62,677 nt of DNA from a virus: positions 1 to 62,677 of the IMG/VR virus record IMGVR_UViG_3300021339_000001; one strand, given 5' to 3'. Position numbers and translations under genes: made by a program. Shown here piece after piece: positions 1 to 62,677 of the stretch (positions are counted from its first letter, which is position 1; each line of letters begins with the position of its first letter). The notes below the pieces were generated by a model. It worked only from the letters and a program-made list of their open reading frames with translations. It had not been told where the DNA came from and searched no databases.

Positions 1-14
1 CCGGCTTCCCCCTG

Positions 15-44
15 TTGACGGTCCCCCACGAGGTCCCATAAACT
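15..44 (+). promoter_or_regulatory. Sigma-70/SigA-like promoter for the ncRNA locus (TTGACG-N18-TAAACT); second copy at 62565..62594
   Basis: -35 TTGACG at 15..20 and -10 TAAACT at 39..44. It lies in and after the loop of hairpin 62539..62583. No CDS follows until 461. Confidence 0.5.
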
Positions 45-64
45 TCCCGTCGTAGCACGGGAGG
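43..64 (+). other. 8-bp stem-loop at the predicted 5' end of the ncRNA transcript
   Basis: cttcccgt / acgggagg pair (one G-U) around the 6-nt loop cgtagc. Confidence 0.5.
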
Positions 65-113
65 AAAAAGGAGCACAAGTTGAATCTCAAGTCGGAAGCT
101 TAAACCTGGCGCC

Positions 114-183
114 GACGTTCAGTGCAGGTTCGAATCCTGCTCCCGCCACGCATGGCGGGGTAGCCCAAAGGTAGAGGCGCGTC
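114..183 (+). ncRNA. Circularly permuted tRNA-like domain 1 (YrlA/Y-RNA-like tRNA mimic)
   Basis: Element order is anticodon-stem 3' strand gacgt, variable loop tcagt, then T arm gcagg-TTCGAAT-cctgc. Next come acceptor 3' strand tcccgcc, capping loop acgcat and acceptor 5' strand ggcgggg. It ends with ta, a D arm gcc-aaaggtag-ggc containing GG, and anticodon-stem 5' strand gcgtc. The stem continues as 107..111/186..190 after a 2x2 internal loop. Confidence 0.7.
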
Positions 184-261
184 TACGTCACCGTCTAAGA
201 CTCTTGCTCCGAGGTTCAATCCCCATCCGTCGATATTAGGTCGAGTGGGCACGACAATGAA

Positions 262-331
262 TGCCGAGTCGTAGGTTCGAATCCTACTGAGGCCTCCACG
301 TGGCCTCATGGTGTAGCGGCAGCACGCGGCG
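262..331 (+). ncRNA. Circularly permuted tRNA-like domain 2 (YrlA/Y-RNA-like tRNA mimic)
   Basis: Element order is tgccg (pairs with cggcg at 327..331), variable loop agtc, then T arm gtagg-TTCGAAT-cctac. Next come acceptor 3' strand tgaggcc, loop tccacgt and acceptor 5' strand ggcctca (7/7 bp). It ends with tg, D arm gtgt-AGCGGCA-gcac, g, and cggcg. The flanks extend the helix (250..256 with 341..348). Confidence 0.7.
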
Positions 332-408
332 TCGTCAAGCTGATCGTGTTCTGAAGCGTACTAATGTCGAACTACCGGACGTGTCACCTGAACAGTGACC
401 AAAATGAA

Positions 409-450
409 GGCCCGGCGCGCTAGGGTAAGCGCGCCGGGCCGCTCCTTTTC
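409..450 (+). terminator. Rho-independent terminator closing the ncRNA locus
   Basis: Perfect 12-bp GC stem ggcccggcgcgc / gcgcgccgggcc with 8-nt loop, followed by gctcctttt. Confidence 0.8.
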
Positions 451-460
451 TGGAGAACCT

Positions 461-784
461 ATGCGCATCAACGGTCAACGGTTTAAGCTCGCTAAAGTCA
501 TCTTCGCCGTCGAGCTGGATAACGGTATGATCTACAGCATCGCCGGTCTGGCGACCGCTGAGATCGAGCATGTGGAGGAGTACCACCATGACTTTTATCC
601 ACGTGACAAGCTAACTCGAAAACTGCGAAACGAGACCATCGTGTCCGCAACGTTCTCGAGTATGTACGGAACTCGGATCTTTCGTCAGAACACGTCACCG
701 ACGTTTGACGACATCCCCGATCAGCCTGACGAATCGACGCCGCGATCACTGAGTCAAGTTCATGAGTTACCGTCAGGTTCCTGA
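461..784 (+). CDS. Hypothetical protein
   Basis: ORF 395..784 trimmed to ATG461, which has a ggaga RBS. ATG395 lies upstream of and runs through the terminator hairpin. Confidence 0.6.
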   Translation: MRINGQRFKLAKVIFAVELDNGMIYSIAGLATAEIEHVEEYHHDFYPRDKLTRKLRNETIVSATFSSMYGTRIFRQNTSPTFDDIPDQPDESTPRSLSQVHELPSGS

Positions 785-1534: not shown

Positions 1535-2427
1535 ATCGAATTCGGCGCGTCGGTGCCGCGATCGTCGCCGTCGTCGCGATGCTGACGCTGGCAGCGTGCG
1601 GCACGCTGTCCAACCCATCGAGCGATCAGCTCGCGATCAACTACTCGGCGGGCAGCTACGAGGCGCAGAAGTTCCTCGACTGTCAGGACCCGTCGACGCG
1701 CGAACGCAAGGGCATCGGCGACCGCGTGTACTACTACCCCGCCGGTCAGCGCACGTTCAAGTTCTCGAACGACGAGGGCAGCGACAACGGCCCGCTCACG
1801 GTGTCGACGAAGAACGCCGAGTTGACCGTCTCTGGGACGGTCACGTTCACGTTGACCATTCCCTGCGACAAGTTCACGGACAAAGCCGGGAAGACGTGGG
1901 ATGGCGGCCTGCGACAGAAGTTCCACGAGACGATCGGTCGTAAGGACAGCGCGTTCACCGAGAAGTCGGACGAACAGCCCGGCAACGGCTGGGATACCAT
2001 GATCCGCACGTACGTCAAGGACGTCGTGGATCGTGCGGTCGACAACGAGGCGCTCGGTTACTCGTGGCAAGACCTCTACTCGAACCCGGAGAAGAAGACG
2101 GCGTGGGAGACGGCCGTCGTGGCCTCGATTCCGAGGCTGATCGAGACGCAGACGGGTGAGAAGTTCTTCACCGTCAACGCGATCTTGATTCAGAAGCCGA
2201 CGATCCCGGATGCGCTCAAGCGTGAGATCGAGAACGGGGAGGCCGCCACGCTGCGGGCGAACAACGCGGACATCGACAAGGGCGCGGCAGCGAACTGGCC
2301 CGGAGGTGTCGCCGCCTACATCGAGTACCAGCGACAGCTCGCGGTCAACAAGGCCATCGAGTCCGGGCAGGTCAAGGTGATCCCGATCCCGCAGGGATCG
2401 CCGATCCTGATTCAGGTTCCGCAGTGA
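1531..2427 (+). CDS. Putative lipoprotein, possibly SPFH/band-7-like
   Basis: GTGA start/stop overlap with the upstream gene. Signal peptide with lipobox LTLAAC. Confidence 0.7.
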   Translation: MNRIRRVGAAIVAVVAMLTLAACGTLSNPSSDQLAINYSAGSYEAQKFLDCQDPSTRERKGIGDRVYYYPAGQRTFKFSNDEGSDNGPLTVSTKNAELTVSGTVTFTLTIPCDKFTDKAGKTWDGGLRQKFHETIGRKDSAFTEKSDEQPGNGWDTMIRTYVKDVVDRAVDNEALGYSWQDLYSNPEKKTAWETAVVASIPRLIETQTGEKFFTVNAILIQKPTIPDALKREIENGEAATLRANNADIDKGAAANWPGGVAAYIEYQRQLAVNKAIESGQVKVIPIPQGSPILIQVPQ

Positions 2428-2591
2428 GTCGGCGGAGTCGCATACGATCCAACCGCGGTGAACACGTTGGAGTCGACGTTGGACTCGGATTCATCGTGTT
2501 CTGGATCTTCTGCTTTCTCTTCTCAGTTGGTTTTCTGGGCGTCATGGTTTGGGCGATCATCGAGCTCGTCCAGTGGGTCACGACGAAGTAG
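2424..2591 (+). CDS. Small membrane protein (55 aa, below the ORF-track cutoff)
   Basis: Hand translation: GTG2424 overlaps the stop of 1531..2427 (GTGA). Hydrophobic core GLGFIVFWIFCFLFSVGFLGVMVWAII. Confidence 0.45.
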   Translation: MSRRSRIRSNRGEHVGVDVGLGFIVFWIFCFLFSVGFLGVMVWAIIELVQWVTTK

Positions 2592-2715
2592 GGAGGTGAC
2601 TCCCATGCGACTCGGATTCGAGATCGGGTGAAGTACGGCACCCGGCGTCGCGGTAGCGGCGTCGGGTGTGTGCTGTGTCGACTACGATCGTCTCGTAACG
2701 CGAAAGGAGACGATC

Positions 2716-2934
2716 ATGCCAGCCGTTCGTGGAATGCTGAGGGTCACGACCGCTACCCAGCTTGCCGCCGTACTGCCGCTGACCGCCAAGCAGCGCGAGG
2801 CGACGCGCGAGCTGACCGAACGTTCGCAGCCGAAGCCAAACAAGGCGTTGACGCGCTCCAACGGGAGCGTTGGCGCTGCGATCGCCGGTCGGCGCGTCGC
2901 TGGCGGCGCGCGGGTGACGGGTGGCGCAAACTAA
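2716..2934 (+). CDS. Hypothetical protein; position compatible with a small terminase subunit
   Basis: ORF 2668..2934 trimmed to ATG2716 (aaaggaga RBS). Overlaps the terminase start. Confidence 0.5.
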   Translation: MPAVRGMLRVTTATQLAAVLPLTAKQREATRELTERSQPKPNKALTRSNGSVGAAIAGRRVAGGARVTGGAN

Positions 2935-4399
2935 GCGCTACGGCGTCGACCGCGAGGCGCTCTGGAAGAAGATCGGATACGTTCCACATCCCGGTCAACG
3001 CGACATCTTGGCGTCACGCGCGCGCTTCCAGGTCAGCGCCTGCGGTCGACGTTTCGGTAAGTCGAACATGGAAGGTCATCGGCTTACACCTGAGGCCTAC
3101 CGTGCGTACCCACTGCGACACCACCTCAAGGAGTCGGGGCAGCGCCATGAGTACTGGATCGTGGGGCCGGAGTACTCCGACGCGGAGAAAGAGTTCCGCG
3201 TGGTCTGGAATGACCTGGTTAAGCGAGGGTTCCCGTTCGACCGGCCAGGGTCTTACAACAATCCTCTCGGCGGGGACATGCATATCTCCCTCTTCGAGGG
3301 GACGTTCCAGATCAACGCGAAGTCGGCTCGCCACCCGGAGACGTTGGTAGGCGAGGGACTTCACGGAGTGATTCTCAGCGAGGCTGCTAAGCTCAAGCAG
3401 ATCGTCTGGGACAAGTATATTCGACCGACGCTGGCCGACTACAACGGCTGGGCGCGCATGACGTCGACGCCCGAAGGGCGGAACTGGTTCTACGACTGCT
3501 GGCGGATGGGTCAAAACCCAGCAGAGTGGGAGTGGGCGAGTTGGCGACGTCCGTCGTGGATGAACCCACACGTCTTCCCCATGGGCGCGACGCCAGCCGG
3601 TATCGACATGATCATGGAGGCGATCGACAAGCGCACGGCGCTGACGCCTGAGTTTCTCGATGACAGCGGGGTCGACCCCGAGATCGTCTCGTTCATTCGC
3701 AGCTTGACACCGGAGGCTTTCCAACAGGAGATCGCCGCTGAGTTCAACGAGTACGTCGGTCGTGTCTTTAAGGAGTGGGACGAAGAGTGGCACGTTCGTG
3801 ACCTGGAGTACAACCCAGCGTGGGAGACCTACGGCGCAGTCGACTACGGCTTCACTAATCCCAACGTATGGTTGCTTATTCAGGTCGGGCCGTTTGGCAC
3901 GGTTCACGTTCTAGATGAGGTGTACGAGCCGGGTCTAACGGCTCCTGAATTTGCCGCGCTGATTCGTCAACGCGGGTTGGCGCCAGCCTCTCTCCGAGGA
4001 TTCTACCCCGACCCAGCCAGTCCCGGCGACACCCGCATTCTCGAGCAGCGACTTCGGGTCAAGGGACGCGGTGGGACCGGTGGAGAGCGTAAACACCGGA
4101 TCGACGCCATTCGTCTCGCACTCAAGGATCGGAACGCGCACTTGCCATTCGGACACGTTGATCGCCAGCCACAGGTGCTGTTCGACAGACGGTGCGTGAA
4201 CACCATTCGAGACATGGGCGCGTACCGGTACCCGAAGAAGCGTGGTGAGATCGAGGCGAACACGCCGGAGGAACCGTTGAAGAAAGACGATCACGGACCC
4301 GAGGCCTTAGGTCGATTTTTCGGTGGACACTTCAACACGCCCCAGGCTGCAGCGTCGCGCACCGTTATCCGACGTAGTAACCTGGTTGGTCCACGCTAG
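2921..4399 (+). CDS. terL: Terminase large subunit
   Basis: 492 aa. Walker-A-like CGRRFGKS at the N-terminus, a nuclease-type C-terminal half (VDYGFTNPNVWLLIQV), and it sits immediately upstream of the portal gene. Confidence 0.9.
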   Translation: MAQTKRYGVDREALWKKIGYVPHPGQRDILASRARFQVSACGRRFGKSNMEGHRLTPEAYRAYPLRHHLKESGQRHEYWIVGPEYSDAEKEFRVVWNDLVKRGFPFDRPGSYNNPLGGDMHISLFEGTFQINAKSARHPETLVGEGLHGVILSEAAKLKQIVWDKYIRPTLADYNGWARMTSTPEGRNWFYDCWRMGQNPAEWEWASWRRPSWMNPHVFPMGATPAGIDMIMEAIDKRTALTPEFLDDSGVDPEIVSFIRSLTPEAFQQEIAAEFNEYVGRVFKEWDEEWHVRDLEYNPAWETYGAVDYGFTNPNVWLLIQVGPFGTVHVLDEVYEPGLTAPEFAALIRQRGLAPASLRGFYPDPASPGDTRILEQRLRVKGRGGTGGERKHRIDAIRLALKDRNAHLPFGHVDRQPQVLFDRRCVNTIRDMGAYRYPKKRGEIEANTPEEPLKKDDHGPEALGRFFGGHFNTPQAAASRTVIRRSNLVGPR

Positions 4400-4434
4400 T
4401 CTGACATCAACTCAACGCGTGAAAGGCGACGTCT

Positions 4435-5952
4435 GTGCTGGATACCTTCACGCAGTACACGACCACTCGGAAGTTCACAGGTCCGCTTCCGTCGTGGATG
4501 TCAGATGAAGACGGTGAACGCGTCCAGGCGTACTCGTTTTACGAGCAGATCTACCGCAACGTGCCGGAGGCGTTCAAGCTGACGCAGCGCGGTGCTGACT
4601 CCGATCCGGTATATCTGCCGAGCGCGCGTGGGATCGTCGAGTCGGTGAATCGATTCCTGGCCCGTGGTTGGAACTACGCCATCGACCCGGCGTTCGACAC
4701 ACCTGAGAATCAGGTGCTCGTTCGGCAGAAGTTGTCGGTGCTGTTCGCCCGTGAACGTATGCGCTCCAAGTTCAACATGCAGAAGCGGTGGGGCTTGATC
4801 CGCGGCGACTCGATCTGGCACGTCATCGCAGATCCGACGAGGCCTGAAAATCGACGCATCAGCATCTACGACGTCGATCCTGCCACGTATTTTCCCATTG
4901 AAGATCTGAACAACCCAGGTCGGCTACTGGGCGTGCACCTGGTGACGCAGACGGTTGACCCCAAGGATCCAACGAAGACCGTGATTCGCCGTCGAACGTA
5001 CCGAAAGCAGGACACCGGCGTGATCACGTCGGAGTTGTCGCTCTGGGAGATGGGCGGTTGGGACGACCGTGACGAGTCAACCGAGTTGAAGTTGGTTGCG
5101 GTGTTGGAGCCCGAGATCGCGCTTCCAGCGTTGATCACGACACTACCGGTCTATCATGTCACGAACTCACGCGCACCCGAGAGTCTCTTTGGCGTCAGTG
5201 AGCTCGCTGGCATCGAGAACGTTCTCGCCGCGGTTAACCAGACGATCAGTGACGAACACCTGACGCTGGTGATGCAAGGGCTCGGGATGTACGTCACAAA
5301 CGCGGGCCCGCCGGTTGACCCAACGACCGGCGAAGAACTGAACTGGGTTCTCGGACCGGGTCGCGTCGTCGAGATCGGCGACGAGAAGACGTTCGAGAAC
5401 GTCGCAGGCGTTCGCACCGTTTCACCTATGATCGAGCACATGAAGTTTATGCTCGAGCAGACGTACGAGGCGATCGGATTGCCTGACGTTGCACGCGGTC
5501 GCGTGGACGTCACAGCGGCTGAGTCGGGTATCGCGCTTCTGCTCCAACTGGGTCCGCTGCTGGCCGCGGCCGAGGAAAAAGAAGATGAGATGCTGGGTGT
5601 GTACGATCAGCTTCTCTATGACCTGGTGTATAAGTGGCTTCCCTCATATGAAGGACTGCCGATCACGGAGATCGTGATCGCGTCGACCGTCGACGACCCG
5701 CTCCCGGATAACCGCAAGCAGCGGATCGAAGAGATCATCATGCTGATGAGTTCGACACCGCCACTGATCTCGGCGGAGTACGCGCGTCAGGAGTTGACCA
5801 AGCTAGGCTACGACTTCCCGGCCGAGATGGGCGAGACGGTCGTGACCGAGCAGGCTGCGTATTCGTCAGCCGTAGGATTGGACCCATTCGCGAGTCGTGT
5901 TGCTGAAGATCTCGAGCGTGAAAGGGCGGCGACTGGTGGAACCGGAGCCTGA
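4435..5952 (+). CDS. Portal protein
   Basis: 505 aa directly after terminase. Size and synteny are typical. Confidence 0.85.
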   Translation: MLDTFTQYTTTRKFTGPLPSWMSDEDGERVQAYSFYEQIYRNVPEAFKLTQRGADSDPVYLPSARGIVESVNRFLARGWNYAIDPAFDTPENQVLVRQKLSVLFARERMRSKFNMQKRWGLIRGDSIWHVIADPTRPENRRISIYDVDPATYFPIEDLNNPGRLLGVHLVTQTVDPKDPTKTVIRRRTYRKQDTGVITSELSLWEMGGWDDRDESTELKLVAVLEPEIALPALITTLPVYHVTNSRAPESLFGVSELAGIENVLAAVNQTISDEHLTLVMQGLGMYVTNAGPPVDPTTGEELNWVLGPGRVVEIGDEKTFENVAGVRTVSPMIEHMKFMLEQTYEAIGLPDVARGRVDVTAAESGIALLLQLGPLLAAAEEKEDEMLGVYDQLLYDLVYKWLPSYEGLPITEIVIASTVDDPLPDNRKQRIEEIIMLMSSTPPLISAEYARQELTKLGYDFPAEMGETVVTEQAAYSSAVGLDPFASRVAEDLERERAATGGTGA

Positions 5953-6193
5953 GCAGGTCAACGTAGCGGACTGGATTCGACACCTTGATGTGCCGTTCAA
6001 TCCTGAGGATGGTGACATGATCACCGACGTCGTCATCTTAGGTCGAATCATGAACGCCAACCGCAACGAGTCGCAGTTCTACGTGGGCATGAATCCTACC
6101 ATTGACATCATCACTCGCATGGGTCTCATCGCGGCCGGTGGCATGTGGGAGGCTGGTCGTAAGTGGGAGAACGTCGACTCCGACGATGACTGA
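5897..6193 (+). CDS. Hypothetical protein (start uncertain: ATG5897 overlaps the portal gene by 56 nt; GTG5990 is an alternative)
   Basis: ORF track. No strong RBS at either start. Confidence 0.45.
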   Translation: MLLKISSVKGRRLVEPEPEQVNVADWIRHLDVPFNPEDGDMITDVVILGRIMNANRNESQFYVGMNPTIDIITRMGLIAAGGMWEAGRKWENVDSDDD

Positions 6194-6350
6194 GACATCG
6201 TGGTGGACGATTAGTGGCGCAGATTTCTTAGCTGCACTGCGAAGCGTTGAGACCGGTGTCAGTCCAGATATCGTGTATGCGGAGTACTACGCGAACAGCG
6301 ATGTTGTGCGCTATGACCAAGACGGTAGCGAGTTGAGTGATGGCGACTGA
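6186..6350 (+). CDS. Hypothetical protein
   Basis: ORF 6102..6350 trimmed to ATG6186, which overlaps the upstream stop (ATGACTGA). Confidence 0.5.
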   Translation: MTETSWWTISGADFLAALRSVETGVSPDIVYAEYYANSDVVRYDQDGSELSDGD

Positions 6351-7263
6351 AGATCGCAAGCCACTTATCTCCTATCTTAAACTTGAGAAGGAGTTTGAGC
6401 GCGATCTTCTGTTCACCTTGGATCGCGCCGCTAAGAAGGCCGAACGCGACGTGGCGCGACTGGTCGGGCGTTCCAACGTCGGTAGCGTCATCAGGGCGTC
6501 TCAGATGTCCATGGTGGCCCGCGCGCTGCGGTTTCGTGTGGCTGAACTGTGGATCGACGTAGGCTCGGAGGTTCGCGCCGGTCAGGTACGTGCTGGTGCT
6601 GAAGCTATGACCGTTATGGTGGAGGAATATGAAGCCGTTCTACTTCGCAGTGGGTTGAGCGCCGACAACATCTCCACGTTCACCAAGGCCGCCGTCGCAC
6701 AGGCTGAGCAGGGAGCGATCGCCGCCGCGACGCGAATGAGTCTTACTCAAGTGCCACTGTCGACGCGGGTTTATGAGTCGGCCATGTTGCAGTCAGGTCG
6801 CATAGATCGCATCGTGAACGAGGCTCTCGCGCGTGGCCTATCGGCGCGTGAACTGGCGTCCGAGGTCAGAGGGTTTATCAATCCTAAGACACCTGGTGGA
6901 GCGCGTTACGCGGCGATGCGACTGGCTCGCACTGAGATCAACAACGCGTTCCACGGTATTCAGGTGCAGGAGTCGATCGACTCACCGTTCATTGAGCGCG
7001 TCGAGTGGCATCTCTCAGGATCACATAAGGTACCCGACGCGTGTAACCGTTACGCAGAAGATGTGCATGAGCCTGGAGAAGAACCGGGAATCTGGCGTCC
7101 GACGCATGTTCCACGAAAACCGCATCCGCAATGTCTTTGCTTTACCACACCTGTCGTTATCGATGAAGAAGAGTTCTTTCAAGGAATGGCAGCAGGTCGT
7201 TTTGACGCACATCTTGAATCACGTGGTGTTAATCCGCACGATCAACCTGTGCCGCGAGCGTAA
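6337..7263 (+). CDS. MuF-like minor capsid / head morphogenesis protein
   Basis: Motif RLARTEINNAFH is typical of the phage Mu F / SPP1 gp7 family. Position after the portal gene fits. Confidence 0.8.
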   Translation: MMATEDRKPLISYLKLEKEFERDLLFTLDRAAKKAERDVARLVGRSNVGSVIRASQMSMVARALRFRVAELWIDVGSEVRAGQVRAGAEAMTVMVEEYEAVLLRSGLSADNISTFTKAAVAQAEQGAIAAATRMSLTQVPLSTRVYESAMLQSGRIDRIVNEALARGLSARELASEVRGFINPKTPGGARYAAMRLARTEINNAFHGIQVQESIDSPFIERVEWHLSGSHKVPDACNRYAEDVHEPGEEPGIWRPTHVPRKPHPQCLCFTTPVVIDEEEFFQGMAAGRFDAHLESRGVNPHDQPVPRA

Positions 7264-7353
7264 GACTCGTTGACCACGAGTAAGACTCGTTAGCAGCCTG
7301 CTAATCTGACATCGATGCGGCTCGAACCGAGCCGGCAGGATTCGGAGGTAGCG

Positions 7354-7989
7354 GTGCCCGCCACAACTCGGACAGACGTTGATGACGTTGACGATCTGGA
7401 CGACGTGGATGACGATGGCACCGGTACCGGCACCGATGACGGCGATGCTGGGAAGTCCAGCAAGGGAACCGACTCAACGTCCGATACGTCGGATGTGACC
7501 GCCGAGGTCAAGAGGCGTCGTCGTGAGGCACGTGAACTAAAGGCTGAGAACGCCACCCTGGCTGCGCGTCTCGAGGAGCTCGAAGGTAAGGACAAGAGCG
7601 AACTCGAGCAGGCGAACACCAAGGTGGTCAAGCTCGAACTTCAGGTCACGGAACTACAGGAGCGGCTCGAAGAGCAGCTCATCAAGAACACATTCCTCAC
7701 GGCGAACACGCATGAATGGCACAACACGAGTCGCGCGTGGCGCATGCTCGATCTGAGTGACGTGACGATCAACGATGACGGATCCGTTGACGGTCTCGAG
7801 GAGGCGATCGCGGCGCTCGCCGCCAGTGATCCCTACCTCATCAAGGTCACGAAGACCGATGACGACGATGACACGGAACGTGAAGCCAAGAATGCGGGCG
7901 CTACCGGTACACCTACCGACGGTCGCCGCCGTCGTACCCCGAGCAAGGGTGCTGACGAGGCGGCTCTTCGGGTGAAGTATCGGATCTGA
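7354..7989 (+). CDS. Scaffolding protein
   Basis: Acidic, coiled-coil-rich (ATLAARLEELEGKDKSELEQANTKVVKLELQVTELQERLEEQ) and located before the capsid gene. GTG7354 has a ggagg RBS; ATG7315 is an alternative start. Confidence 0.7.
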   Translation: MPATTRTDVDDVDDLDDVDDDGTGTGTDDGDAGKSSKGTDSTSDTSDVTAEVKRRRREARELKAENATLAARLEELEGKDKSELEQANTKVVKLELQVTELQERLEEQLIKNTFLTANTHEWHNTSRAWRMLDLSDVTINDDGSVDGLEEAIAALAASDPYLIKVTKTDDDDDTEREAKNAGATGTPTDGRRRRTPSKGADEAALRVKYRI

Positions 7990-8102
7990 CCTCGGAGGGC
8001 GGAATCATCGCCAGGTACGACAAGTACGACCCATATTCGGGCGGATTCCGCGCACCGCTCGAGAACGCCATCGTTCTCGCGAATGCCTTCGTTGCATACG
8101 CG

Positions 8103-8363
8103 GTGGGTCTCAACGGTAGTGGCCGAGTCGTTCTCGGCGCCGGTACGACCGGCATCAAGGGCATTCTCATCGCGCACAACGCTCGCGAGGTGGGCGAGAT
8201 CGTCGACGTCATGACCGGCGGTGAGATCGTCGAATTCGCGCTCGCCGCGGGCACGCCGTACTACGGTGTCGCCGCTGACGGGACGATCACGGCCACCGTG
8301 GGCTCCAACAAGGCACTCGGCTTCACGGTCGAAGCCTCGCGCATGATCGTGAGGGTCGTCTGA
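8103..8363 (+). CDS. Head decoration-like protein (DUF2190-like); true 5' end probably upstream
   Basis: GTG8103 is the first canonical start, but the frame is open and protein-like from 7989 onward. See findings. Confidence 0.6.
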   Translation: MGLNGSGRVVLGAGTTGIKGILIAHNAREVGEIVDVMTGGEIVEFALAAGTPYYGVAADGTITATVGSNKALGFTVEASRMIVRVV

Positions 8364-9484
8364 TGGGCAAGGGCTTCAACGTCGCAGCGGATATCGTCAA
8401 TAGGACCGCTGACGGGCGTGACATCAACGACATGTGGGCTGAATTTCAAGCCACCGTTGCGCTGCGCAACTCGCGTCGGCAGCCGTTGATCGACCTGCTG
8501 ACGTTCCCGGTTACCAACGTGATCGAGGATGTTCCACAGATCGGTCAGGAGGACTTCGAGGAGGCATCGGAGTTCGGTGTGCCGAAGGGGATTCGGCCGC
8601 AGCTCACCTACTTCTCGCTGGCATACACCTTCAAGTGGTACGACCTGGCGAAGCGGAACACGTGGCGATTCCTCGCCGACGCGACCGCCGCGCAGGTCGA
8701 AGCCAACCACCAGGTGGCGTTGGACGCGGACAATCGTCTCGTCTTCAAGACGGTCATGCACACGCTGTTCCGCAACACCAACCGATCGGCCACGATCAAC
8801 GGCCAGTCCTACAACGTGTACGCTCTCTACAACAACGATGGCACCGTGCCGCCGGAGTACGCGGGCAACACGTTCGACGGCACGCACACCCACTACCTGG
8901 TGAGCGGCGCGGCCGGTATCGACTCGGGTGACTTCGAGGCGATGATCGAGCACCTTCGGCACCACGGGTACTCACCAGCCAACGGTATGCAGCTCGTTGC
9001 GCTCGTGAATCCGGCACAGTCGGTCGCGATCCGCACGTGGAGGGCGAACACCGCCAACGCGAACGGCGCCGTCGCTCTCTACGACTTCATCCCCGCGTCG
9101 AATCAGCCGAGCCTGATCGTCCCGAACTCGGATGGTCTGCTTGGCACCATTCCGCCGTCGTCCTTCCAGGGCTTCAGCGTGATCGGCAGCTACGGGAGTG
9201 TGCTGATCATCGAAGAGGACTACTGCCCCGCTGGCTACGTGGCGATGATCGCGACTGGCGGCGCGGCCAACCTCCGCAACCCGGTCGGTATTCGGATGCA
9301 CCCGAACGCGTCGCTTCAGGGTCTCCTGCTGCTCGGCGGTAACCAGACGGGCTACCCGTTGATCGAGTCTTTTTACACCCGCGGACTCGGCACCGGCATT
9401 CGTCAGCGCGGCGGCACGGTCATCATGCAGATCAAGGCCTCCGGCAACTACGACATTCCGGCGCTCTACGCGAACGTGCCGTGA
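8363..9484 (+). CDS. Major capsid protein
   Basis: 373 aa. ATG overlaps the upstream stop (TGATG). Position after scaffold and decoration genes fits. Confidence 0.85.
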   Translation: MGKGFNVAADIVNRTADGRDINDMWAEFQATVALRNSRRQPLIDLLTFPVTNVIEDVPQIGQEDFEEASEFGVPKGIRPQLTYFSLAYTFKWYDLAKRNTWRFLADATAAQVEANHQVALDADNRLVFKTVMHTLFRNTNRSATINGQSYNVYALYNNDGTVPPEYAGNTFDGTHTHYLVSGAAGIDSGDFEAMIEHLRHHGYSPANGMQLVALVNPAQSVAIRTWRANTANANGAVALYDFIPASNQPSLIVPNSDGLLGTIPPSSFQGFSVIGSYGSVLIIEEDYCPAGYVAMIATGGAANLRNPVGIRMHPNASLQGLLLLGGNQTGYPLIESFYTRGLGTGIRQRGGTVIMQIKASGNYDIPALYANVP

Positions 9485-9497
9485 TAGGAGCAGACAC

Positions 9498-9860
9498 GTG
9501 AGCAAGCAGATCGACATGAGTAAGAACTCATTCACCGACGACGAGGTTCAGTACATGCGTGAGCGCATGATGTCGGTTCCCGGTGAAGACCCTGAGCCCG
9601 AGCCGGAGCCCAACTTCGACACCGTCCGCGACGTGACGTCGCCCACGCCACCGATCATCGGCGTGGATGCGCCACCGCCTCCCTCTGCGCCGACGGAGCC
9701 AGAGAACGCGCCGGAGACCGAATCGGTGGACGAGGGCGACGAGTTCGAGCGTCTTCCAGCCGAGTCACTTCGACAGATGCTGCGTGATCGCGAGCAGCCG
9801 ACGTCGGGCACCAAGCCGGAGCTCATCGAGCGGTTGCGTTCGCTTCCGCCGAAGGAGTAA
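9498..9860 (+). CDS. Hypothetical protein with Pro/Glu-rich linker and C-terminal SAP/HeH-like motif
   Basis: C-terminal motif LRQMLRDREQPTSGTKPELIERLRSL. RBS aggag. Confidence 0.65.
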   Translation: MSKQIDMSKNSFTDDEVQYMRERMMSVPGEDPEPEPEPNFDTVRDVTSPTPPIIGVDAPPPPSAPTEPENAPETESVDEGDEFERLPAESLRQMLRDREQPTSGTKPELIERLRSLPPKE

Positions 9861-9879
9861 CTAGTGGGAGGGGAACTCG

Positions 9880-10197
9880 GTGGCGACCGCGGCAGACATT
9901 GATCAACTGAGGTTGTTGATCGACGACCGCAACGCCGCCGAGTTCTCTGACGACTACCTCGCTGAACTGCTGGACGCGGGCTCTACGATGAACGCGACGG
10001 CCGCGACGTTGTGGCGCGTGAAGGCAGCGCGTTACGTCAAGCTCGTACACGTCAAGGAAGGTTCTAGCACCCGGAACCTGGGCGACATGCACGCGCACGC
10101 GTTGGCCATGGCCAAGGTGTACGGCGATGATCCGGGTGGCGATGAAGAAACGCCGATCACCGGGCGAGCTGGGACGCGGGAGATCACACGTGCCTGA
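9880..10197 (+). CDS. Head-to-tail adaptor
   Basis: Size, position and N-terminal ADIDQLRLLIDD...YLAELLD pattern. Confidence 0.6.
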   Translation: MATAADIDQLRLLIDDRNAAEFSDDYLAELLDAGSTMNATAATLWRVKAARYVKLVHVKEGSSTRNLGDMHAHALAMAKVYGDDPGGDEETPITGRAGTREITRA

Positions 10198-61127: not shown

Positions 61128-61359
61128 TGTCATCGTCAGCCGAACGGAACTAACCAGCCGCTCAGCCTGAACGGTCCCTCCGAACGACTGGTAGATCGGA
61201 GCGCGAAATCTCATAAGCGATACGGTGAGACGGAGTCTTCACTGTCGAAACGTGTGAGGGGTTTTTCACCAGGTTTGACCTCATCCAAACCGGCGCCCCC
61301 GGGTGAATCGTCGTGGTAGCGATTTGCGTCGGGGGACCTAAACTTCCACCCGGGAGATA

Positions 61360-61399: not shown

Positions 61400-61473
61400 C
61401 GCGGTGTAGGGCAGCTCGGCAGCCCGCCTGGCTCATAACCAGGAGGTCGTGGGTTCGAATCCCACCACCGCAA
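61400..61473 (+). tRNA. tRNA with CAU anticodon (Met, or Ile2 if lysidinylated); C1-A72 mismatch
   Basis: Manual cloverleaf: cgcggtg-ta-gggc..gccc-g-cctgg-CTCATAA-ccagg-aggtc-gtggg-TTCGAAT-cccac-caccgca-a. Confidence 0.85.
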
Positions 61474-61520
61474 CGGAACGGCGTGGGTTTCCATCGCTGG
61501 TCTACCACGTCGTTTCACCA

Positions 61521-61592
61521 CGGAATCGGGGAGGATGGTAATCCACTCGCTTTGGGAGCGAGTTACACCGGGTTCGATTCCCGGGGTTCCGA
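61521..61592 (+). tRNA. tRNA-Pro (UGG)
   Basis: Manual cloverleaf: acceptor cggaatc / ggttccg (one G-U), anticodon arm ctcgc-TTTGGGA-gcgag, T arm ccggg-TTCGATT-cccgg. It has G8 and a 3-bp D stem. Confidence 0.7.
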
Positions 61593-61744
61593 CGCCAGCT
61601 ATGGGATAGAAATCGTGCCTGAGATGTTGGGACAAGTTAGAAGACATCGCCGTAAGGTTCCCAAATGCTAATCCGCTGGCAGGCCGGGAGATAGTCTGCT
61701 GCTAAGCTGAAGCTGAACGACACGAGACGAAAGGACAGGGGATC

Positions 61745-62491
61745 GTGGGATCATTAGCTGCGGTCATTGCGGTACGCGATGACCTCAAGGCCAAGTCACT
61801 GCGTGAGTTCACCGACGTGCACCGACTGTCACAGCGGTCTGAGCCGATGACGGGCCTCATTCGGGTCTACACGCCGACCGACGACGACGGCGAGAAGCTG
61901 CCGCCTGAGTCGACCCGGGTGCAGACGAACTGCCACAACATCCTGGGGACGGTTCGCGACTCGCTCTCTCGTCTCATGGACGTGGAGCTGACGCAGGACG
62001 TGGCCAACACGTCGGCGAAGGCGGACGTGATCGTTCGCGACGTCACGTTGCTCCGCGACGTGCCGGTGACCTACCTGCTCTTCCTCGAGAAGAAGCTGGT
62101 GGACCTGCGGACGTTCGTCCTGAAGATGCTGGTTCTCGACCCGGCGTTCGAGTGGTCGTGGGATGCTGATCTCGGTGCGTACAAGACACCGGTCGTCGGC
62201 ACCACCCGTACGAAGAAGGTGCCGTTCGCGTTCGAGAAGGCGCCCGCCACCGATCGTCACCCAGCGCAGGTCGACGTCTACCAGACGGACGTGATCGTCG
62301 GCACCTGGTCGACCACTCGTCTCTCGGGCGCCATTCCCTCGAGCGATCGCGACGAGATCTTGTCGCGCATCGACATGCTGACCGTCGCCGTCAAGGAGGC
62401 GCGTTCGCGGGGCAACGCGATCGAGGCGACGCCTGTCACGGCGGCTGACACGCTGTTCGAGTTCCTCTGGGAGGGCTCACTGGTTGGATGA
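61745..62491 (+). CDS. Hypothetical protein (248 aa) lying between the tRNAs and the tRNA-mimic locus
   Basis: gaaagga RBS with GTG start. No family recognised by eye. Confidence 0.7.
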   Translation: MGSLAAVIAVRDDLKAKSLREFTDVHRLSQRSEPMTGLIRVYTPTDDDGEKLPPESTRVQTNCHNILGTVRDSLSRLMDVELTQDVANTSAKADVIVRDVTLLRDVPVTYLLFLEKKLVDLRTFVLKMLVLDPAFEWSWDADLGAYKTPVVGTTRTKKVPFAFEKAPATDRHPAQVDVYQTDVIVGTWSTTRLSGAIPSSDRDEILSRIDMLTVAVKEARSRGNAIEATPVTAADTLFEFLWEGSLVG

Positions 62492-62538: not shown

Positions 62539-62583
62539 CCTCGTGGGGGACCGGCTTCCCCCTGTTGACGGTCCCCCACGAGG
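62539..62583 (+). other. Perfect 12-bp stem-loop whose loop holds the -35 of the ncRNA promoter and the window junction
   Basis: Stem cctcgtggggga / tcccccacgagg, 21-nt loop. Confidence 0.7.
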
Positions 62584-62677
62584 TCCCATAAACTTCCCGT
62601 CGTAGCACGGGAGGAAAAAGGAGCACAAGTTGAATCTCAAGTCGGAAGCTTAAACCTGGCGCCGACGTTCAGTGCAG
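62551..62677. repeat. Right copy of the 127-bp terminal direct repeat
   Basis: Identical to 1..127. Confidence 0.97.

Follow-up and report, generated by a model that had tools for sequence, protein, structure and literature searches.

A twin tRNA-mimic RNA linked to DUF7873 protein genes in phages and bacteria: a candidate Ro60-independent ribonucleoprotein

The virus record IMGVR_UViG_3300021339_000001 of IMG/VR, analysed here over its entire 62,677 nucleotides (hereafter, the window), contains at positions 43–450 a locus that, judging from its letters, encodes a single structured non-coding RNA of ∼400 nt in which two circularly permuted transfer RNA (tRNA)-like heads are mounted on long, imperfectly paired rods. 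Direct comparison shows that the two ends of the contig are identical over 127 bases, so that features located near the ends have to be read across the junction; the contig is circular or terminally redundant, and phage-like, and its terminase region is ∼73% identical to the counterparts from Gordonia phages. Given this circularity, an open reading frame (ORF) for a protein of the DUF7873 family lies directly upstream of the RNA, with its stop codon ∼105 nt before the first hairpin. An earlier note on this DNA described the locus as one without a Ro60 gene, which is accurate, but it missed the DUF7873 gene on the other side of the junction, and the RNA is not an orphan. The note also placed the RNA next to two real tRNA genes; both are real, although it is only the circularity of the contig that makes them neighbors.

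Each of the two modules consists of a rod and a head, head 1 at 112–191 and head 2 at 259–338, and all parts that the earlier note assigned to the two permuted elements are found in place by direct reading and in the predicted fold (Table 1). The strands of the anticodon stem are GACGT (114–118) and GCGTC (179–183) in module 1, where the variable region occupies 119–123, and TGCCG (262–266) and CGGCG (327–331) in module 2. As suggested previously, each head has the layout of a tRNA L-shape with a closed acceptor stem and an open anticodon stem that continues into the rod, and the RNA ends in a strong, G+C-rich terminator hairpin with a U-rich tail. The minimum-energy fold of 45–450 (−177.5 kcal/mol, z = −6.5) reproduces both heads, and none of 100 shuffled sequences folded as well. 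The segment AAAAGGAGC (66–74) is perfectly complementary to GCUCCUUUU (441–449) within the terminator tail, and this pairing, in the minimum-energy fold, would close the whole two-module RNA as one domain.

Table 1. Features of the RNA locus, its surroundings in the window and the Ro60-linked arrays used for comparison.
Feature	Position	Strand	Details and basis
5' hairpin	43–64	+	8 bp, loop of the form GUYGNAGCRC; minimum-energy fold
Module 1, rod and tRNA-like head 1	79–220	+	rod 79–118/179–220, 32 bp with bulges; minimum-energy fold
Module 1 T arm	124–140	+	GCAGG-TTCGAAT-CCTGC; direct reading
Module 1 acceptor	141–160	+	TCCCGCC (141–147), loop ACGCAT (148–153), GGCGGGG (154–160); 7/7 pairs, one G-U
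Module 1 U8, A9 and D arm	161–178	+	GCCCAAAGGTAGAGGC; U8 at 161; D arm with GG at 163–178
Module 2, rod and tRNA-like head 2	226–379	+	rod 226–265/328–379, 34 bp with bulges; minimum-energy fold
GUCGAUAU, at the position of the family consensus GCCGAACG	229–236	+	alignment of homologues
Module 2 T arm	271–287	+	GTAGG-TTCGAAT-CCTAC; direct reading
Module 2 acceptor	288–308	+	TGAGGCC (288–294), loop TCCACGT (295–301), GGCCTCA (302–308); 7/7 pairs
Module 2 U8, G9, D arm, G26 and strand CGGCG	309–331	+	U8 at 309; D arm GTGT/GCAC at 311–325; direct reading
Small hairpin GTCAC...GTGAC	383–399	+	minimum-energy fold only
Terminal hairpin and U-rich tail, intrinsic terminator	409–450	+	hairpin 409–440, 13 bp (12 G-C), loop UAGGGUAA
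DUF7873 protein gene	61745–62491	+	ORF, 248 amino acids; Pfam PF25283; its product is the candidate binding partner
tRNA-Met(cat) and tRNA-Pro(tgg)	61400–61474 and 61521–61593	+	ARAGORN, Rfam; immediately upstream of the DUF7873 gene
Putative promoter-like site TTGACG-18-TAAACT	15–44	+	9/12 consensus positions; plausible
Repeat of window 1–127, assembly overlap	62551–62677	none	direct comparison; joins the DUF7873 gene to the RNA
Ro60-linked array, then gene, L164	3538–3933, 4019–5638		
Ro60-linked array, then gene, L177	4962–5495, 5639–7354		
Ro60-linked array, then gene, L217 (Rhizobium phage TM30)	4662–5724, 5807–7375		

The closest relatives of these modules among known RNAs are of the YrlA type, as the earlier note had it. 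The Rfam YrlA model (RF02553) aligns over its full length (model positions 1–114) with both module 2 (248–353, 24.1 bits, E = 0.009) and module 1 (89–200, 23.0 bits, E = 0.019), with neither reaching the gathering score of 69 bits; homologues of the modules are likewise matched from end to end. Genuine Ro60-linked modules from actinophages also remain below this threshold (32–38 bits, compared with 21–38 bits for DUF7873-linked modules), so that a sub-threshold score is no evidence against YrlA kinship. A covariance model (hereafter R1) that was built from 42 module-2 cores of DUF7873-linked homologues, the window not being the source, yields exactly two strong matches in the 62.7-kb window, 259–338 (71 bits) and 112–191 (56.2 bits); the next best match scores 17 bits and maps to a tRNA-tRNA junction. 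Outside the window, the R1 scores of modules reach 81 bits. The Rfam tRNA model produces only partial matches of 15–18 bits within 1–600, and no canonical tRNA is detected at the RNA locus by ARAGORN or Rfam, the only calls in the window being the pair at 61400–61593; neither method detects a transfer-messenger RNA (tmRNA) in the window. Among the simple assignments that were considered, a functional permuted tRNA gene was rejected because there is no anticodon loop, a tmRNA because there is no tag reading frame, and a type III toxin-antitoxin module for lack of supporting evidence.

The permuted helices are strongly supported by covariation in homologous phages and bacteria. In 145 distinct model-aligned modules, standard pairs account for 87% of the cells compared with 65% in shuffles, and the covariation score is 0.61 compared with 0.20, a value matched by none of the 500 shuffles; when the partner columns are slid by 1–3 positions, pairing falls from 87% to 41–51%. 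Changes on both sides are observed at all seven acceptor pairs and at four of the five T-stem pairs, and the T-arm pairs are 99.6% paired across 145 distinct homologues. The first sequence set was picked by a pattern that demands T-stem and acceptor pairing, and hence the paired percentages of these two helices in that set are partly circular. The D stem, which is outside the selection pattern, is 93.5% paired, with compensatory changes at 4/4 pairs, and the model-wide R1 search recovers modules without the pattern. Because the length of the variable loop differs among homologues, the anticodon stem is paired in only 47–56% of cases in the covariance-model alignments, and an anchored comparison of own and cross-sequence pairings was used instead: an anticodon stem of at least 5 bp in tRNA geometry forms in 84% of own pairings for module 2 and 56% for module 1, compared with ∼21–22% in the cross-sequence controls. 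The rods behave likewise, the two flanks of a given homologue pairing more stably with each other than with those of another sequence (−31.9 compared with −26.2 kcal/mol, and −38.1 compared with −31.1 kcal/mol). Covariation is detected at 6/6 pairs of the module-2 rod helix 234–239/361–366 and, in 68 homologues, at 11/11 pairs of the terminal hairpin, the loop of which, GGRUA, is kept in 60 of the 68. A whole-RNA MAFFT alignment combined with an all-against-all pair scan was too noisy for the rods, yielding just one rod helix besides the terminal hairpin and the T, acceptor and D stems.

These observations dispose of an artefactual origin, which we regard as hardly credible. Tandem tRNA junctions do score up to ∼34 bits with R1, and it has been cautioned that such junctions can mimic YrlA (Chen et al. 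2014, PMC4201824). However, neither T arm has a 5' tRNA half in front of it, the two acceptor strands of each module are complementary at 7/7 positions across hundreds of divergent sequences, and the modules keep a fixed position after one protein gene and reach 56–71 bits in the window, with a maximum of 81 bits at other loci. Covariation and synteny thus refute the possibility that the elements are decayed tRNA genes or fragments of ordinary ones.

Conservation extends to individual nucleotides. U8 is invariant in both modules in 68/68 homologues. The first base of the acceptor loop is A in module 1 in 63/68 homologues, with the loop opening ACCA in 27/68, and U or G in module 2 in 64/68; many acceptor loops open ACCA, UCCA or GCCA, and that of module 2 in the window opens UCCA. 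The D arm of module 1, GCCCAA..GGNAGAGGC, hardly varies across all loci. Further conserved parts are the loop of the 5' hairpin (its counterparts in the phages Phendrix and Racecar and in bacterial loci resemble it in the loop, on a stem of another sequence), the motifs CUCGCUC and UUAAAC, and the inter-module junction with the consensus GCCGAACG. The acceptor loop of module 2 consists of 6–9 nt in bacteria and carries an insertion of 30–39 nt in several phages (L002 4055–4163, L003 4405–4516, L004 3966–4069 and L011 3977–4080).

The RNA does not occur on its own but is tied to DUF7873. The window protein matches Pfam PF25283 over profile positions 2–242 of 244 (E = 2.8e-84, 283 bits, cut-off 27). 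A nucleotide search with 1–600 led to an unannotated gap in the tRNA array of Gordonia phages Phendrix and GodonK that holds two tandem YrlA-like modules directly after gp144, a hypothetical protein; Phendrix gp144 is 46% identical to the window protein (E = 2e-73), and both are full-length DUF7873 proteins. Homologues of DUF7873 were identified in 75 phage records, with hosts from Vibrio, Gordonia, Rhizobium, Klebsiella/Serratia, Arthrobacter, Pseudanabaena, Ralstonia, Rhodococcus and Microcoleus. A large protein collection contains >3,300 homologues, and relatives are encoded by at least 576 stretches of a collection with one genome per species, the bacterial carriers including Actinomycetota, Chloroflexota, Armatimonadota, Deinococcus, Myxococcota and Acidobacteriota. 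In every locus fetched, the DUF7873 gene is followed by an unannotated gap of 300–1000 bp. R1 detects modules after the gene, at least one and in most cases two, in 11/11 phage loci from hosts among Actinobacteria, Alpha-, Beta- and Gammaproteobacteria and Cyanobacteria. In bacteria, where 1.5–10 kb of the flank beside the gene was scanned, 83/83 loci contain at least one match at E ≤ 1e-8, and 76 of these contain two. The linkage between the RNA and DUF7873 is thus obligatory, whereas the remaining neighbors of the bacterial DUF7873 genes differ from genome to genome.

In phages, the RNA typically keeps the company of tRNA genes: in nine of the 11 phage loci, and in the window, it is located inside or beside a tRNA gene cluster. 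This setting, together with the retention of acceptor, T and D features in the absence of an anticodon loop, would suit a decoy or sponge, that is, anticodon-less heads absorbing factors that hit tRNA acceptor ends, such as acceptor-end-modifying toxins or RNase P, and thereby sparing the phage tRNAs. One bacterial copy, moreover, sits beside a Wadjet-like operon and a PIN toxin pair. We nevertheless consider a decoy unlikely. The RNA-protein pair is conserved among bacteria, in several hundred species at the least and in chromosomal surroundings of an ordinary kind, which argues for a housekeeping or stress role, and DUF7873 matches no known defence family. The earlier note had proposed hijacking of host Rsr or a decoy against tRNA-targeting defences; the presence of the pair in free-living bacteria makes either less likely as the primary role and a dedicated Ro60-independent ribonucleoprotein more likely. 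The bacterial copy in question, L095 from Actinomadura alba (1701–9917), has DUF7873 directly downstream of a four-gene Wadjet-like operon (DUF2397, DUF2398, SbcC-like and DUF3323/DUF2399) and a PIN/TacA-like pair, a defence-island-like arrangement that was seen in none of the other bacterial loci. In a 137-kb phage-like Logan contig with DUF7873 (P0011), the gene is followed by a 435-bp gap, and the neighbors within 5 kb include a Thg1-like enzyme, a metallophosphatase and a Macro-domain protein (tRNA/RNA end repair).

Comparison with Ro60-linked RNAs delineates what is specific to the DUF7873-linked ones. A scan of viral contigs with the module-1 D-arm motif returned 120 matches, of which 111 are ordinary tRNAs or other sequence and three more are tandem-tRNA junctions; two Ro60-linked loci were found by chance. 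In these two loci (L164 and L177, both on actinophage contigs), three or four tandem modules precede a Ro60 gene (TROVE and vWA domains). Across L164, L177 and TM30, the arrays consist of three to five tandem modules each, with a repeat period of ∼150 nt in L164 and L177, and each array has its own repeated flanking motif, e.g. GGUGCG[G/U]AG...UACUUC in L164. R1, although derived from DUF7873-linked modules, scores the Ro60-linked ones at 30–49 bits, and the module-1 D-arm sequence is present in one module of each of the two chance arrays (L164 3538–3615, L177 5250–5327). The repeated non-tRNA motifs of the Ro60-linked arrays are missing in 68/68 DUF7873-linked RNAs, and the reverse also holds. 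With heads common to both classes and non-tRNA parts class-specific, the tRNA-like head appears as a shared module, the protein-specific parts being those that differ.

The two systems are also separate at the level of genomes. Ro60 is encoded in 301 phage records, and the Ro60-bearing Gordonia phages (VanLee, Rabbitrun, Neville and Trax) are not those that carry DUF7873. Rhizobium phage TM30, which encodes both proteins, has two sets of modules, one that follows the DUF7873 gene and another, separate one that immediately precedes the TROVE gene. No TROVE domain was detected in the 10 largest ORFs of the window, and a six-frame search with two actinophage Ro60 proteins gave a best E value of 0.23, in agreement with the earlier note, which saw no TROVE/Ro-like ORF in this genome; nor is there a TROVE gene within 8–10 kb of the bacterial DUF7873 gene in the five loci examined. 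Of the published features of YrlA, the RNA has the permuted order, the elbow nucleotides (U8, the GG of the D loop and a TTCRA-type T loop) and the long flanking stem, and lacks a Ro60 gene within ∼4 kb, the exact Ro60-site motif in the window and a score above the Rfam threshold. The RNA is, then, independent of Ro60 genes.

This independence of genes has to be weighed against use of the protein of the host. The Ro60/Rsr-site motif, GNCGAAN0-1G, is located on the 5' strand of the YrlA stem (PMC4201824), and the family consensus GCCGAACG at the inter-module junction has the same form, so that use of host-encoded Ro60 is possible, a point that counts against a particle built around DUF7873. The motif is not exact in the window, which has GUCGAUAU at this place, whereas an exact match (GCCGAACG or a variant) is present at the equivalent position in 15/68 homologues. 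Combined with the module type shared with Ro60-linked arrays and with the precedent of Thermus phage phiLo, in which phiRo60 with two Y-like RNAs (Yrl1/Yrl2) recruits host PNPase (PMC12135203), this allows for a classical Y RNA that would work via host Ro60/Rsr (and PNPase), with DUF7873 as an accessory or mere neighbor. We consider such a role improbable, given the inexact motif and the lack of TROVE in the window and near the bacterial loci examined, the separate array that TM30 maintains beside its Ro60 gene, and the absence of the Ro60-array motifs from all 68 DUF7873-linked RNAs.

The DUF7873 protein itself offers few clues. The AlphaFold2 model of the window protein (mean predicted local distance difference test score, pLDDT, of 91) is a mixed alpha/beta fold with three long helices and long beta hairpins. 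No Ro60 structure is among the 50 best PDB matches listed for the model, none of which is significant (best E = 1.6e-3, template modelling score 0.14), a Pfam search of the protein revealed no TROVE match at E ≤ 1, and there was no sequence match to PDB, defence families (PADLOC), NCBIfam or PHROGs. A weak likeness of the fold to Cas7 (template modelling score 0.14) is not meaningful and was discarded. A literature search found no paper mentioning DUF7873, although an earlier description elsewhere is possible.

Taken together, the structure, the conservation and the linkage suggest that the RNA, as a tRNA mimic of the YrlA type, makes up a ribonucleoprotein together with DUF7873 and independently of Ro60; we consider this the probable, if by no means assured, reading. 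Structurally, the RNA belongs with YrlA-type tRNA mimics and is therefore not a new kind of RNA. In the proposed particle, DUF7873 would bind the class-specific non-tRNA parts, namely the rods, the inter-module junction and the conserved hairpin loops, leaving the two generic tRNA-like heads free for tRNA-handling enzymes. RNase P would cleave the heads just 5' of the acceptor 5' strand, and CCA would be added to form the 3' end, with the cut pieces staying base-paired. The precedent is the YrlA of Mycobacterium smegmatis, the only studied one with a 7-bp acceptor stem, which RNase P cleaves both in vitro and in vivo and to which CCA is added, the halves remaining bound to protein after cleavage (Chen et al. 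2014, PMC4201824). By analogy, the heads described here are probably cut by RNase P and CCA-tailed as well, given the 7-bp stems, the invariant U8, the discriminator-like first base of the loop and the loops that open NCCA. Much as Ro60-Y RNA particles do, the particle might act in RNA or tRNA metabolism, for instance as a tether or gate for an RNA-processing enzyme, and phages could carry the RNA in their tRNA gene clusters as one component of a set that supports translation.

The same features of the acceptor end allow for another, in our view very improbable, reading, that of a split tRNA- or tmRNA-like molecule that would be aminoacylated after processing of the acceptor loop and act on the ribosome, with DUF7873 in a SmpB-like role. 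Permuted tmRNA genes show the same succession of T arm, acceptor 3' strand, NCCA, short spacer and acceptor 5' strand, the discriminator-like base is conserved, and homologous loci produce weak partial matches to tmRNA models. Against this, ARAGORN reports no tmRNA, no tag frame is conserved and each head is followed by a base-paired rod, the anticodon loop is missing, and the acceptor stems vary freely, without recognizable identity elements. Separately, Pseudanabaena phage PA-SR01 (L006) shows at 5763–5942, ∼1.2 kb downstream of its DUF7873-linked RNA, a full-length match to the permuted tmRNA model (31.9 bits, below the threshold of 47), which may be a phage-encoded two-piece tmRNA.

The sequence comparisons establish the architecture of the RNA, its conservation and its attachment to DUF7873 rather than to Ro60 genes; binding by DUF7873 is predicted, and we infer the processing and the biochemical role. 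Several further observations weigh against a DUF7873 particle. DUF7873 is not a basic protein (isoelectric point 5.2 for the window protein, mean of 6.3 for 51 members), its model has no significant Foldseek match in PDB or BFVD, and CCA is encoded in a minority of the acceptor loops only. In seven of the 83 bacterial loci, there is only one strong module. The association of the RNA with DUF7873 is one of proximity and is not strictly operonic: in Ktedonobacter (L094), both modules lie just past the DUF7873 gene on the opposite strand (2372–2609, minus), so that the RNA must have its own promoter there; in Microcoleus phage My-WqHQDG (L008), the RNA is 2 kb from the gene, behind a HEARO element; and in phage Keelan, a tRNA-Thr gene separates the two. 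That the linkage survives such rearrangements, however, fits a protein with its partner RNA better than it fits a fixed operon. In L008, the intervening segment (3950–5461) comprises a HEARO RNA (129 bits, above threshold) and an ORF of ∼425 amino acids, and looks like a mobile-element insertion that split the RNA (modules at 5584–5662 and 5827–5904) from the DUF7873 gene.

These rearranged loci also bear on whether the RNA acts in trans at all. In most bacterial loci, no more than ∼20 nt separate its start from the stop codon of DUF7873, too few to accommodate a promoter, which suggests co-transcription with the gene. A cis-acting 3' element of the DUF7873 mRNA, a signal for RNase P processing or stabilization as in mascRNA/MALAT1, could be arranged in this way, and, judging from the M. 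smegmatis RNA (PMC4201824), RNase P should act well on acceptor stems of 7 bp. Nevertheless, we find such an element quite improbable: a processing signal would require far less than two complete heads on long rods, with conserved motifs at the junction and a terminal loop that is conserved as well, the RNA is uncoupled from the gene in L094, L008 and Keelan, and in the window a promoter-like site lies between gene and RNA.

The putative promoter of the window RNA overlaps the motif CNTAAACTTCC (37–47), for which the only other site in the genome is 61337–61347, upstream of the tRNA-Met/Pro pair; a second match at 62587 duplicates that at 37 via the end repeat. The occurrence of CNTAAACTTCC before both stable-RNA loci fits a promoter role for 15–44, which is suggestive rather than proof, and the motif may be specific to genes for stable RNAs, as a phage promoter or as a signal for processing. 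At both of its places, CNTAAACTTCC is followed by a hairpin of the form CUUCC...GGGAG. Two window ORFs, 100–309(−) and 395–784(+), overlap the structured RNA, and similar small overlapping ORFs occur elsewhere (L003 4268–4513, Keelan gp126; L009 3908–4063, Vibrio phage K479 CDS 0060; L006 4270–4368); these are probably not real genes, the RNA itself being unannotated in the deposited phage records. Farther downstream in the window, the ORF 1531–2427 (298 amino acids) has a lipoprotein-like N terminus and a borderline SPFH/Band-7 match (23.5 bits, cut-off 23.6), and phage NiceHouse has a Band-7-like gene shortly after its DUF7873-linked RNA. Band-7/SPFH as a conserved neighbor was dropped because the window and NiceHouse proteins have no detectable BLASTP similarity (E = 6.7).

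To our knowledge, bacterial Y-like RNAs have so far been defined and sought only beside Ro60 genes, and the pairing with DUF7873, in hundreds of bacterial species and dozens of phages, apparently has not been described before. We see as evenly balanced the broader proposition that DUF7873 and its twin tRNA-mimic RNA represent an unrecognized class of Ro60-independent ribonucleoproteins, a second kind of Y-RNA-like particle found in several hundred bacterial species from at least six phyla and repeatedly acquired by tRNA-rich phages, in which the heads are a portable module whereby Ro60 and DUF7873 plug into the tRNA-handling machinery. The same mimic module tied to a different widespread protein suggests that the head is the functional constant and the partner is interchangeable. 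The association provides the first functional lead for DUF7873, a family of thousands of members, and flags as RNA genes the unannotated 300–600 bp gaps, along with some probably spurious small ORFs, in dozens of phage genomes. Culturable Streptomyces and Micromonospora and the SEA-PHAGES Gordonia phages are tractable test systems.

Among the known systems, two-piece permuted tmRNA with SmpB is similar in having a permuted tRNA-like domain, a long helix in place of the anticodon arm and a small protein encoded nearby, and differs in its mRNA-like tag region and pseudoknots, both missing here, whereas the present RNA has two heads, each with a full D arm. OLE RNA and the DUF3800-associated motifs are likewise large structured RNAs that are syntenic with one uncharacterized protein family across phyla; as far as we know, they contain no tRNA-like domains. 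The phiRo60-Yrl1/Yrl2 particle of phage phiLo, which is proposed to recruit host RNA enzymes (PMC12135203), similarly combines a phage protein with two adjacent Y-like RNAs, but DUF7873 has neither TROVE nor vWA and has another predicted fold, and the RNA is downstream rather than upstream of the gene. Closest of all is YrlA (RF02553, including M. smegmatis YrlA/YrlB), with which the RNA shares the T arm, the loop-closed acceptor-like stem and the D arm, the elbow nucleotides, the open anticodon stem that continues into a stem of distal sequences, the tandem modules in each locus and, in the case of M. smegmatis YrlA, the 7-bp acceptor stem. Unlike YrlA, the RNA has DUF7873 rather than Ro60 nearby and scores below the Rfam threshold; it is free of the repeated motifs of the Ro60-linked arrays and always forms a pair of modules, ∼400 nt in all, to which conserved junction motifs, a 5' hairpin and a conserved terminal hairpin loop are peculiar.

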